DNA of 6,455 nt from a virus (Duplodnaviria > Heunggongvirae > Uroviricota > Caudoviricetes). The notes beneath the pieces were generated by a model. It did no database searches. It was not told where the DNA came from and saw only the letters and a list, made by a program, of their open reading frames with translations. The position numbers were made by a program, and so were the translations under genes. The stretch's first letter is position 1, and each line of letters begins with the position of its first letter. Positions 4,059-6,126 of this stretch are shown here, piece by piece. The stretch lies in IMG/VR virus record IMGVR_UViG_2751185961_000002; one strand, written 5' to 3'.

Positions 4059-4293
4059 TATTCAGCAGGTGCCTGAACGCATGGCTTTATTCAGGTCGTC
4101 TGGAAAAGCGCATGAGCAGCGTAATAGCGGAGTTCATGGCGAAGAGTATATGAACAGATTATTCGAATGCTATATGAGACTGAAGCACGGAGATCGCTAT
4201 GACCTGACATGTGATGCTGACGGCTTCTACTGCCGTGAAGTTGTGAAACGAATGTTTGAAGTGTGGTGTCATTGTAAAGGATGGGGGCTGTGA
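4051..4293 (+). CDS. Small Cys-rich protein, 80 aa, unknown function; possibly a Q-related zinc-binding module
   Basis: ATG 4051 overlaps the ninH stop (ATGCGTGA); MRDIQQVPER...CYMRLKHGDRYDLTCDADGFYCREVVKRMFEVWCHCKGWGL. The N-terminus MRDIQxVxER resembles, from memory only, the start of the short 933W/DLP12-type Q antiterminators. Unverified. Confidence 0.5.
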   Translation: MRDIQQVPERMALFRSSGKAHEQRNSGVHGEEYMNRLFECYMRLKHGDRYDLTCDADGFYCREVVKRMFEVWCHCKGWGL

Positions 4294-4907
4294 TGCGGCT
4301 AACCCCAGTATTCGGCATGGTTAACTTTATTAATGATGCTCATTTCCGCCGCATATGGAGGCATCCGAAGAAAATCATTAACTCTCGTCAGAAAGCATGG
4401 GTTCACTACATGCTACAGGTATGGGGAAATGTTAACGCTGGTGATGATTCTCCTTGTGGTGCAATTAACGTTATTGGGCGACTGATGATTCGCAGTCAGT
4501 GGAGCGATGACAAAGCTAAGCAGATTGAGTCTGTTGTCATGCGTCTGTATGAAGAAGACGGACTACGTGGAGATGAACTCCATCAGAAAGCCCGAGAACT
4601 GGTCATCCCTCAGTCATCGGCAGGTAATATCATTGCTCTCGCCAAAGAATCCGATGATGCTGCTTTCGTTGAACGTGTGATGGTTGAGACCTTTCATCGT
4701 GAAAGCCCTGTCCGTGATGTAGCTATTAGGCGATATTGCAATCGCGACAGCACGCAAGATATCGCCAGGATGATTTCTCAGATAACAGGAGTTGATATTC
4801 AGTATTGCCGGAGGCGGGTCGTGTGGTGCGAGAGGGTCCTTGATTCAGAAATGTTTTATGCAATGAAGCGAGAATTGGAGAAAGAACTTCTAGTGATTGC
4901 TGGATGA
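4293..4907 (+). CDS. 204-aa protein in the Q (late antiterminator) position; function assigned by synteny only
   Basis: ATG 4293 overlaps the upstream TGA (TGATG) and follows a GGGGG SD-like run. Last gene before the candidate pR'-tR' unit, which is where Q sits in lambdoid phages. The sequence does not resemble lambda Q as I recall it, so the family is unassigned. Confidence 0.5.
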   Translation: MRLTPVFGMVNFINDAHFRRIWRHPKKIINSRQKAWVHYMLQVWGNVNAGDDSPCGAINVIGRLMIRSQWSDDKAKQIESVVMRLYEEDGLRGDELHQKARELVIPQSSAGNIIALAKESDDAAFVERVMVETFHRESPVRDVAIRRYCNRDSTQDIARMISQITGVDIQYCRRRVVWCERVLDSEMFYAMKRELEKELLVIAG

Positions 4908-4960: not shown

Positions 4961-5067
4961 TTGTGTATGCTCGGAGCAAAAGCGCACTGAGAAGCGAAAG
5001 AGAAATCCTGATTTACCTCGGTCGTCGATAATATTTAGGATCGGCATACTGGCTAGATTAGGTAAAG

Positions 5068-5098
5068 GCCTCGGCAGAAATGTCGGGGCTTTTTGTTT
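5068..5098 (+). terminator. tR'-like rho-independent terminator
   Basis: Stem GCCTCGGC (5068-5075) / GTCGGGGC (5082-5089), two G-U pairs, loop AGAAAT, then TTTTTGTTT. The following GCACAACAGGTAAGAGCATTGA matches my memory of the sequence just downstream of lambda tR'. Confidence 0.7.
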
Positions 5099-5171
5099 GC
5101 ACAACAGGTAAGAGCATTGAACCCGCAGACCTCGTGGAATTGGTGAAAGGTGTGCGCAGTGCTCTTATCGT

Positions 5172-5298
5172 TGTGGTGAAGCTCAATGGCGAGCTAGCAG
5201 ACAGGCGACTGTGAAAATACTAGTCATGTAGCGGATCGCCGCGCGTATTGTAATCGGCAGCGCACCGATGGGAGCTGGTTCGATTCCGGCCGCCACAA
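5172..5298 (+). ncRNA. tRNA-like element in the late leader (atypical; probably a degenerate tRNA or tRNA-derived structure, not a canonical tRNA)
   Basis: Canonical T-arm GCTGG-TTCGATT-CCGGC (5274-5290); perfect 5-bp anticodon-like stem ATCGG/CCGAT (5253-5257 / 5265-5269) with 7-nt loop CAGCGCA (no U33); acceptor-like pairing TGTAGCG (5227-5233) / CGCCACA (5291-5297) with one mismatch; no D-arm; no encoded CCA. Enclosed by a longer stem GTTGTGGTG (5170-5178) / CGCCACAAT (5291-5299). Confidence 0.35.
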
Positions 5299-5417
5299 TC
5301 CAAACTGAGCCGTAGCCTCTGGGTGTCCTGAATTCATCAGTGATAGTTACGCTGCGGCCTTCTACATACGATTTTTGTGAAAAGCGGGTGGCAAGAGGCT
5401 GCGAAATTTTTAAATAC

Positions 5418-5637
5418 CTCACAATTCCACAGCTTGATGATTGTCTGGCTGCCGGAGAATTTGTTAAAAATTACATCGCGTGGTGAATCCCCCTCAGCGG
5501 CGGGGCATCTGGCAAAGTGTATGATCCAGCGAACATGCAAATTCAGTAGCCAGGCTGAATTTACCGGGAGGCACCTGGCACCATGCGACAGACAGAAATT
5601 AGGCTATACTTCAGCCCCTCTCCGGAGGGGCTTTTCT
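5418..5637 (+). repeat. Late-leader repeat unit A (about 220 nt), ending in an intrinsic terminator
   Basis: Shares with unit C the blocks CTCACAATTC, ATTGTCTGGC, TTTGTTAAAAA, TGGTGAATCCCC...GGGGCAT, ACCGGGAGGCACC.GGCACCATGC and the terminator CAGCCCCTCTCCGGAGGGGCTTT. Terminator stem GCCCCTC (5614-5620) / GAGGGGC (5625-5631), loop TCCG, then TTTTCT. Confidence 0.6.
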
Positions 5638-5689
5638 GTGCAGGATGTATCACAGTTTCCTGAATTCTGAGTACTGTCCTGTTACTCAG

Positions 5690-5849
5690 GGTGCTATATT
5701 TTCTGACGTGATGAAAGTCTGCCGGAAGGCGGAACGTATCGGAAATGACCCAGTAGAGAAAACGTTGACTCAGATACCGATGCTGAGTTACCGGGAAACC
5801 GGCATCACATGACCGCTATCCTTCCAGGCTCGCTCCGGCGGGCCTTTTT
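5690..5849 (+). repeat. Late-leader repeat unit B (diverged or partial copy), ending in an intrinsic terminator
   Basis: CTGAGTTACCGGGAAACCGGCATCACATGACC aligns with CTGAATTTACCGGGAGGCACCTGGCACCATGCGAC of unit A. Terminator stem GGCTCGC (5827-5833) / GCGGGCC (5838-5844), same TCCG loop, then TTTTT. The 5' boundary is approximate. Confidence 0.45.
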
Positions 5850-5886
5850 ACTGCAGAAAACAGTTTTCCCGTAAAATGCCACGTTA

Positions 5887-6119
5887 CTCACAATTCAGGC
5901 TGGCGATTATTGTCTGGCCAGCGGGAAGTTTGTTAAAAAAATATGGCATGGTGAATCCCCTGTGCGGAGGGGCATATCAGCGACAGGTGTTTGGTCACAC
6001 CCCTTATCCTTTCTGGTGCGGGTTCAGGTGCTGATACTGAACTCACCGGGAGGCACCCGGCACCATGCATGAACGGTACATAGCGCTACTCTCCAGCCCC
6101 TCTCCGGAGGGGCTTTCTT
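5887..6119 (+). repeat. Late-leader repeat unit C (about 233 nt), ending in an intrinsic terminator
   Basis: Same conserved blocks as unit A. Terminator stem GCCCCTC (6096-6102) / GAGGGGC (6107-6113), loop TCCG, then TTTCTT. Confidence 0.6.
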
Positions 6120-6126
6120 GTTGGAT

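Follow-up and report, generated by a model that had tools for sequence, protein, structure and literature searches.

Downstream of the Q-like antiterminator gene in IMG/VR virus record IMGVR_UViG_2751185961_000002, within the stretch of 6,455 nt analysed here (the window), lies a sequence with features of a tRNA, and the question that it raises is what, if anything, it encodes. A preliminary description of this DNA offered three readings of the sequence: a decayed tRNA gene, a tRNA-derived structured RNA in the late leader, or the remnant of an old integration site. Comparison with related sequences argues that positions 5170–5299 of the plus strand are a real, conserved gene for a structured RNA, predicted to fold as a full tRNA cloverleaf plus one extra arm. 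The second of the three readings thus stands, whereas the decayed tRNA and the integration-site remnant do not. The extra arm, a self-complementary loop at its tip, copies outside late leaders and the conservation of a different insert at the homologous place in phage lambda all go beyond that earlier account. No prior description of the element was found in the literature, exact sequence strings included, subscription journals being outside the coverage.

Fold of the element

The fold was read from the sequences and then scored on a MAFFT alignment of 65 distinct sequences, to which the fractions given below refer. Among the cells predicted to pair, 96.9 % are paired, compared with 30–48 % when the 3′ partners are slid by 1–3 columns; both sides have changed in 22 of the 37 pairs, a count that overstates the number of independent events, the sequences being related; and 0 of 500 shuffles matched the real alignment on any of five measures. 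The parts of the element are listed in Table 1. Those of a canonical cloverleaf are all present, namely an acceptor stem, a D arm with G18-G19, an anticodon arm of 5 bp and 7 nt, a variable region of 4–5 nt and a T arm of the T-psi-C type, and the departures from it are a fifth arm and an acceptor stem of 9 bp. The T arm, the closing stem of 9 bp and the perfect anticodon-like hairpin with an A (A5259) at the U33 position had been recognized before and are confirmed, with the addition of a C at the purine position 37. The D arm had been reported as missing; this was mistaken, and a canonical D arm with its GG dinucleotide begins two bases (AA) past the 5′ acceptor strand and is almost invariant in sequence.

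Six of the nine pairs of the acceptor-like stem show changes on both sides, so that the covariation proposed for this stem from a comparison with lambda was right and reaches beyond lambda. There are two such pairs in the anticodon-like stem (5 bp; variants ATCAG/CTGAT, ATTGG/CCAAT and ATAGG/CCTAT) and none in the D stem (4 bp), which is near-invariant. Several unpaired bases are near-invariant too: the AA at positions 8–9, the D loop AA(U/C)GGC, the GG(A/G)A before the T arm and the T loop UUCGA(U/C)U. The anticodon-like loop reads C-A-(G/U)-C-G-C-A, and its C35, G36, C37 and A38 are invariant. Base 5187 in the D loop and base 5284 in the T loop (alignment columns 20 and 119) co-vary in 65 of 65 sequences, TT being found in 36 and CC in 29. 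These correspond to tRNA positions of about 16/17 and 59, in the ‘variable pocket’ of the elbow, and do not make a Watson–Crick pair; their joint change would be consistent with an intact tRNA elbow, shared descent being the alternative. A tertiary contact linking the GCGC motifs of the internal and hairpin loops was also considered and is unsupported, since both motifs are invariant and the G34-to-U change is uncompensated.

A covariance model built from the 65 distinct homologues finds one copy in the window, on the plus strand only (147.8 bits, E = 8.8e-34). No minus-strand match of the model to the window element was found below E = 10, and over other copies the minus strand scores 6.6–12.7 bits. 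We assign the RNA to the plus strand because of these strand-specific scores and the many G-U pairs in the helices. The single-sequence fold of 5160–5315 is uninformative (z = -0.58), and its minimum-free-energy structure breaks the T arm.

Table 1. Positions in the window of the tRNA-shaped element, its parts and the leader features that precede it
Feature	Position	Strand	Remarks
tRNA-shaped RNA element, whole	5170–5299	+	covariance model match 5168–5303
Acceptor-like stem, 5′ strand	5170–5178	+	GTTGTGGTG; partner 5291–5299; 9 bp; 97.8 % of cells paired
D arm	5181–5194	+	GCTC-AATGGC-GAGC; 4-bp stem, GG dinucleotide in loop; 99.2 % of cells paired
Extra arm, 55 nt	5197–5251	+	after position 26, before anticodon-like hairpin; stems 1 and 2 covary
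Extra-arm stem 1	5197–5200 / 5248–5251	+	3 of 4 pairs changed on both sides
Extra-arm internal loop	5201–5203 / 5241–5247	+	A-U/C-A opposite G-C-G-C-G-U-A; bases invariant in 61–65 of 65 sequences
Extra-arm stem 2	5204–5211 / 5232–5240	+	6 of 7 shared pairs changed on both sides
Extra-arm apical loop	5212–5231	+	19–20 nt across the family
Self-complementary hexamer	5219–5224	+	ACTAGT; in apical loop of extra arm; proposed kissing-loop site
Anticodon-like hairpin	5253–5269	+	ATCGG-CAGCGCA-CCGAT; 5-bp stem; arginine-type ‘anticodon’ GCG; A33, C37
T arm	5274–5290	+	GCTGG-TTCGATT-CCGGC; 3 of 5 pairs changed on both sides; 99.4 % of cells paired
Acceptor-like stem, 3′ strand	5291–5299	+	CGCCACAAT; partner 5170–5178
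Q-like late antiterminator gene	4281–4907	+	PHROGs phrog_753 ‘anti-termination protein Q-like’, E = 3.5e-68
Predicted intrinsic terminator of short late-promoter transcript	5064–5099	+	tR′-like; 13-bp hairpin then TTTTTGTTTG
Hairpin 1, 63 nt	5107–5169	+	closing stem AAGAGCATTG (5110–5119) / CAGTGCTCTT (5157–5166); variable interior

Self-complementarity of the extra-arm loop

The hexamer at the centre of the apical loop is self-complementary by Watson–Crick pairing in 63 of the 65 distinct sequences and in all 65 if G-U pairs are allowed, and no other register of self-complementarity in the loop exceeds 4 of 62. It occurs in seven versions among 133 copies, of which ACTAGT (72), TCTAGA (21), TCTGGA (18) and TCGCGA (14) are the more frequent and GCTAGC (5), TCCGGA (2) and ACCGGT (1) the rarer. 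Self-complementarity that persists through all seven versions, in a unique register, is the behaviour by which RNAs like the dimerization initiation site (DIS) are recognized. The outer pair varies among A-U, U-A and G-C, and the innermost covarying pair is TA in 49 sequences, GC in 12, CG in 2 and TG in 2. Since this innermost pair consists of adjacent bases, which are unable to pair within one molecule, the pairing is likely to be between two molecules. A second copy of the hexamer within 400 nt, which could serve as an intramolecular or nearby partner, is absent from 125 of the 133 loci. Cofolding models of the arm give the dimer an advantage of -10 to -17 kcal/mol, which shrinks to -3 to -10 kcal/mol once the palindrome is broken.

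As DNA, six of the seven hexamers are palindromic too, and a feature of the DNA can be envisaged in which the stems are recombination linkers and the palindrome is the site of a dimeric protein, or in which the whole is the remnant of an attachment (att) site targeted to a tRNA. The outer stem bases are common to the occupant of the same slot in lambda (see below), as expected from recombination at short conserved sequences. However, TCTGGA is self-complementary as RNA only, via G-U, and this speaks against a palindrome that serves a protein on the DNA; a protein site, moreover, would conserve its sequence rather than its self-complementarity. The helices are likewise kept through G-U pairs, whose counterparts on the opposite strand would be A-C, and the covariance model is strand-specific. 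No integrase lies nearby, and the anticodon-like hairpin matches the anticodon arm of the host tRNA-Arg(ACG), whose sequence was verified against all 5426 E. coli genomes, at only 12 of its 17 bases. We consider a role at the level of the DNA to be very improbable. The attachment-site remnant in particular was rejected in view of the presence of the 5′ acceptor strand and D arm and the location between the Q-like gene and the lysis region.

Distribution and genomic contexts

The family comprises ~133 copies in lambdoid, P22-like, Skatevirus and Pantoea phages, and is narrow, being confined to phages of the Enterobacterales. In BLAST searches the 140 bp element alone is found at 72–94 % identity in otherwise unrelated phages, the carriers being HK75 and other lambdoids, Salmonella Skatevirus siphoviruses, a P22-like phage and Pantoea phage PdC23; a search with the most divergent copy returned the same 92 phage records as the first. 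Two pattern scans of IMG/VR gave ~125 further copies. A 17-base pattern scan of genome contigs returned almost exclusively chance matches in GC-rich genomes, only those in L143 (Superficieibacter) and L214 being real. Two copies were never seen in one fetched phage locus. Of 5426 complete E. coli genomes, 158 contain the element, all of them without an annotation over it, and a correct annotation accompanies none of the copies found. The labels that do overlie it in phage records are a minus-strand ‘hypothetical protein’ (PhiR5_2, at about 5183–5515 of the window), a 58-nt ‘tRNA-Ser’ (vB_CECAV_048, PQ186186 21833–21890) and ‘polyubiquitin-A’ (vB_EcoP-611R6 and 683R2, ON470589 and ON470594), all of which are probably mis-annotations.

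Late leaders hold 98 of the 133 copies, in the order terminator, CAACAGG, hairpin 1 and element, and the early-left leader holds 28, flanked by a nut site (boxA/boxB) and a gene of N type. The neighbours across loci are nin genes, a Q-like gene, N genes or tail genes. In the copies that we call group C a terminator lies within 8 nt downstream. In Skatevirus the element is located between tail genes but on the opposite strand to them, with a promoter-like TTGACA-17-TAGATT upstream and either a terminator or a tRNA downstream; the latter is tRNA-Ile(AAT) or tRNA-Met(CAT), ~100 nt away on the same strand as the element. At two further loci (L248 and L255) the element is followed directly, on the same strand, by tRNA-Arg(TCT) and tRNA-Met/Ile(CAT), which bears out the connection to the tRNA slot of Shiga toxin (Stx) phages made in the preliminary description.

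The Salmonella phage seszw (L264) retains the element in all 69 of its genome-reduced mutants. We rejected this retention as evidence of need, since the study targeted annotated genes only (PMC9825161). Two of the laboratory clones (L263 and L265) have single point mutations inside the element, and one of these, a C-to-T change at the first base of the hairpin loop, is the same as a natural variant.

Relation to tRNA

Finders of tRNA genes are silent on the intact element, yet the multi-phage alignment shows covariation of its stems. ARAGORN at default settings reports 0 genes in the window and calls nothing at the position of the element in 18 loci, and the Rfam tRNA family (RF00005) has no match in the window at E <= 10 and none at the gathering score in 11 loci. 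When the extra arm is deleted in silico (5196–5252 and the homologous columns), default ARAGORN calls tRNA-Arg(GCG/TCG) in 30 of 51 distinct constructs, including that of the window. Runs with introns and relaxed thresholds gave contradictory calls (Ala, Thr, Arg) and were disregarded. True tRNAs score 16–20 bits with the covariance model of the element. ARAGORN finds no transfer-messenger RNA (tmRNA) in the window, where a partial Rfam match to beta_tmRNA, over the T arm, the 3′ acceptor strand and the 3′ flank, scores 13.5 bits (E = 0.52), the gathering score being 84.

The calls obtained once the arm is removed could be taken as a sign of an odd but functional arginine tRNA or aminoacyl carrier, charged by arginyl-tRNA synthetase (ArgRS) via C35 and G36, and used for translation or for tRNA-dependent transfer. 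Such a molecule would agree with the finding that the sole variable base of the ‘anticodon’ is the wobble base (G in 56, U in 9), C35 and G36 being invariant, and with the occupation of tRNA slots beside true tRNAs. However, the decoding features U33, purine 37 and the core U8-A14 are lacking. There is A33 in 64 of the 65 sequences and C37 in all 65, which is incompatible with a decoding loop, and A occupies both linker positions 8 and 9 in all 65, putting A8 in the place of U8. The D loop is without A20, an ArgRS identity element, and no intact copy is recognized by ARAGORN or the Rfam tRNA model in the loci scanned. Although the element had been described as having no CCA, a CCA at 5300–5302 does directly follow the stem, counted either as 9 bp or as 8 bp plus T5299. 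We assign this CCA to the flank and not to the element, because lambda has it without the element and because other contexts are without it or have it in another register: late-leader copies show 8 bp, C or T, then CCA, N-leader copies 9 bp, A, then CCA, and the Skatevirus and group C copies no CCA. Together A33, C37, A8, the 9 bp acceptor stem and the want of a fixed discriminator or CCA register rule out a decoding tRNA, and we regard an arginine tRNA or carrier in the broader sense as highly unlikely. The element is probably derived from an arginine tRNA and no longer decodes.

The silence of the tRNA finders and the loss of U33, U8 and purine 37 would also be expected of a tRNA pseudogene in decay that has no function in its own right. 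Against this, compensatory changes are seen in every helix except the near-invariant D stem, the loops are near-invariant, the added arm is under structural selection, and the element has been kept at the identities given above in four unrelated phage backgrounds and is found in four kinds of genomic context. Simple decay is in our opinion scarcely credible.

Possible role

From the sequences we infer a scenario of processing, dimerization and action in trans. The element would be transcribed within strong non-coding leaders (the late operon after tR′ and the early-left nutL-N segment) or within small phage tRNA operons, and would be excised by the host enzymes of tRNA maturation, with RNase P acting at the 5′ end, trimming at the 3′ end and, for the version in the N-leader hairpin, RNase III. 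The tRNA fold would then stabilize the excised RNA, and two molecules would join via the hexamer at the tip of the extra arm to give a symmetric, double-tRNA-shaped particle. This dimer would act in trans, most likely on a host or phage tRNA-binding factor, a target suggested by the invariant Arg-like loop and the elbow. Action in trans is favoured because the Skatevirus gene is antisense to the tail genes, with promoter-like sequence upstream and a terminator or tRNA downstream, and because each fetched phage locus has no more than one copy. The scenario in its entirety, that of a transcribed, excised, stable, dimeric and trans-acting tRNA-shaped RNA, seems to us somewhat probable. The more specific proposal that a kissing-loop homodimer is the effector, for example as a decoy or inhibitor of a tRNA-binding host factor, is put forward tentatively; the targets of such a decoy may include a nuclease with which an anti-phage system attacks tRNA-Arg, or an enzyme of tRNA processing.

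Several points weigh against this scenario. The apical loop of 19–20 nt is large in comparison with the 7–9 nt of classic kissing loops, and the 9 bp stem, the A8 in place of U8 and the lack of a fixed discriminator or CCA make handling by RNase P and the CCA enzyme uncertain. In Skatevirus the promoter-like sequence amounts to one match to the consensus, where 0.9 would be expected by chance. Part of the covariation will have been inherited, although pure inheritance is unlikely because there are several distinct pair types per position and seven hexamers. The second of the seszw clone mutations, an A-to-T change in the T stem, breaks a pair, so that rich culture probably does not require the RNA, although the mutation says little on the need for the element. 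Finally, 126 of the 133 copies lie in leaders, just 5′ of genes, as a role in cis would also have it.

Such a role is the main rival. The tRNA fold would be a processing signal only and the extra arm an accessory, and cleavage by RNase P or RNase III would uncouple the nut- or qut-terminator RNA from the message and thereby set how well N or the lysis genes are translated or how stable their messages are. Besides the predominance of late and early-left leaders, it is favoured by two IMG/VR loci (L009 and L073) in which the element fills the N-leader hairpin between nutL and the start codon of lambda N. A processing signal, however, needs neither invariant loops nor a covarying arm of 55 nt nor a self-complementary tip; the Skatevirus gene, being antisense to its neighbours, has no downstream open reading frame (ORF) to regulate; the group C copies have a terminator within a few nucleotides; and lambda manages without the element at both sites. 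We think a purely cis-acting leader element rather unlikely, and continue to prefer the trans-acting dimer.

Leader slots in lambda and other phages

The homologous slot in lambda is bounded by the stem GTTGTGCTG / CAGCACAAC at 44857–44865 / 44933–44941, with homologous flanks, and contains an unrelated insert of 67 nt as against 112 nt in the window; both the stem and the different, shorter insert had been given correctly in the earlier account. The seventh pair of the closing stem is G-C in the window and C-G in lambda. The lambda insert (44866–44932, L007 1067–1133) is a conserved small element in its own right. Copies ~87 % identical to it are found in the tRNA arrays of rV5-type myoviruses (115 records), flanked by tRNA-Ser and tRNA-Thr on the same strand (L266 1501–1568 in rV5), a 98.5 % copy is present in the P1-like phage D6, and a further copy lies inside hairpin 1 of Salmonella phage ST1UNAM (L005 ~2410–2480). 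Its closing stem covaries (GTTGTGCTG/CAGCACAAC versus GTTGACCTTG/CATGGTCAAC) and its inner hairpin shows compensatory change (GGCG/CGCC versus GTCG/CGAC). The insert is thus likely to be a second unannotated phage RNA gene, in lambda itself. Neither it nor the interior of the lambda N-leader hairpin is a distant homologue of the element, the covariance model giving 13.4 bits and at best 7.8 bits, respectively. We note also, in rV5 (L266 1582–1683), an unannotated tRNA-like stretch between the lambda-type element and tRNA-Thr, with an acceptor GCTAGGT/ACCTAGC, a T arm GGTGG-TTCGATT-CCATC and a score of 18.4 bits with the same model.

In L009 and L073 the gene downstream is lambda N itself, and the element replaces the interior of the lambda N-leader hairpin. 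The stem CTTTGG-GGTGTG... / ...CACACC-A-CCAAAG is kept together with its bulged A, and in comparison with lambda 35400–35520 (L262) neither this closing stem with its bulge nor the boxB of nutL nor the ribosome-binding site of N has changed. The lambda hairpin is known as the RNase III site that tunes N synthesis, and the exchange of its interior is a natural test of what that interior is for.

Hairpin 1 is a second slot. Its closing stem of 10 bp is kept in other phages via compensatory changes (GAGAGTATTT/AAGTACTCTC and AAATCAATTT/GAGTTGGTTT), and its interior, of 29–74 nt, exists in >10 unrelated versions; that of L024 holds a T-arm-like CAGAG-TTCGATT-CTCTG. The leaders thus appear to behave as stem-closed slots that exchange genes for small structured RNAs, and the same small genes recur in tRNA arrays.

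Setting of the window

The whole window is 99.8 % identical to Escherichia phage PhiR5_2 (BLAST), and its upstream genes include those for NinB, YbcO, RusA and NinH (Pfam). We place the element in the leader of the late operon because the Q-like gene, a terminator with a T run and hairpin 1 precede it in that order. The terminator hairpin folds at -19.2 kcal/mol (z = -3.84) and hairpin 1 at -28.6 kcal/mol (z = -4.99). From 5090 on the window aligns with phage HK75 at 92.7 %, and the HK75 record has Tr′ annotated just 5′ of the aligned part (L002 1463–1504).

Downstream of the element are three tandem members of the STnc100 small RNA family at 5448–5641, 5677–5852 and 5917–6125 (139.9, 30.0 and 129.8 bits in that order; Rfam gathering score 47), each of which ends in a terminator-like hairpin (5613–5632, 5826–5845 and 6095–6114). 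One STnc100 copy is also present 3′ of the element in locus L016. At 1607–1809 the window contains a c4-a1b1, isrK and C4 antisense-RNA cluster (44.5, 68.9 and 67.5 bits), and directly 3′ of it an ORF of antirepressor type (1834–2535, ORF6N plus P22_AR_C). As judged from these matches, the cluster and the gene make up a predicted RNA-controlled antirepressor module like P1/P7 immI or Gifsy-1 IsrK, in this case in the nin region. A HigB-like toxin gene (1242–1616) and a helix–turn–helix antitoxin gene (937–1242) lie on the minus strand between the replication and nin genes.

Significance and comparison with known systems

The lambda-like phages are the best-studied of viruses, yet two of their much-examined leaders contain a conserved RNA gene that has remained unannotated or mis-annotated. 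The element is a small and experimentally easy case both of non-decoding tRNA mimicry by a phage and of natural RNA self-association, for which a 2026 review has few examples. We suggest that the N-leader and late-leader hairpins are slots in which genes for small RNAs are traded with tRNA arrays, those of lytic phages that are not related, a view that changes how ‘non-coding’ leaders and tRNA arrays are to be annotated; if it is true, and with the lambda insert included, leaders and arrays would be slots that house a hidden repertoire of small RNA genes open to exchange. If the target is a tRNA-directed defence or a tRNA enzyme, an RNA-based strategy would be added to the arms race between phage and host, and if the element is a dimeric effector in trans it would be a miniature, tractable counterpart of ROOL and GOLLD in phage tRNA arrays.

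Among known systems, the tRNAs of lambdoid late leaders (ileZ-argN-argO of the Stx phages, and the Asn and Leu tRNAs in the late leader of phage L; PMC8022706) share with the element the slot after the late promoter and terminator, the strand and the cloverleaf. The element differs from them in its arm of 55 nt, its A33, C37 and A8, its 9 bp stem and its self-complementary loop, and also occurs in the N leader. Like the element, the YrlA Y RNAs are non-coding and non-decoding and keep features of the D and T arms (PMC4201824). In M. smegmatis, RNase P cleaves YrlA and CCA is added to it (PMC4201824), a precedent for the acceptance of such mimics by bacterial tRNA enzymes. YrlA adjoins Ro60/rsr and ends in a Ro-binding helix with GNCGAAN0-1G, at the place of the anticodon arm (PMC4201824), whereas the element ends at the acceptor stem, has no rsr nearby, no GNCGAAN0-1G motif and no Rfam match.

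With HIV-1 DIS and other kissing-loop homodimers the element has in common a loop 6-mer that varies while keeping its self-complementarity, and A-rich flanks (PMC12990946); the DIS loop is of 9 nt and in a viral genome, whereas that of the element is of 19–20 nt and in a small phage RNA, and the dimer of the element is a prediction. ROOL and GOLLD are likewise RNAs of phages and prophages, often in tRNA arrays, which self-assemble by kissing loops, but they are of 500–800 nt, form rings or cages of 6–14 subunits and belong to other bacterial groups (PMC12286853, PMC12990946). The element, at ~130 nt, is a fifth of their size, tRNA-shaped and enterobacterial, and the window has no Rfam match to either at E <= 10. 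By their defining features the element is a member of none of the tRNA, tmRNA, YrlA or ROOL/GOLLD classes. The N-leader hairpin and late-leader insert of lambda have closing stems and flanks identical to those around the element, and interiors that are unrelated to it. The closest artificial parallel may be the engineered ‘tRNA scaffold’ of Ponchon and Dardel, in which a foreign arm on the anticodon side is reportedly processed and stabilized by the cell like a tRNA. That laboratory design replaces the anticodon arm, whereas the graft in the element is natural, stands beside the anticodon arm and coevolves with the body of the molecule.

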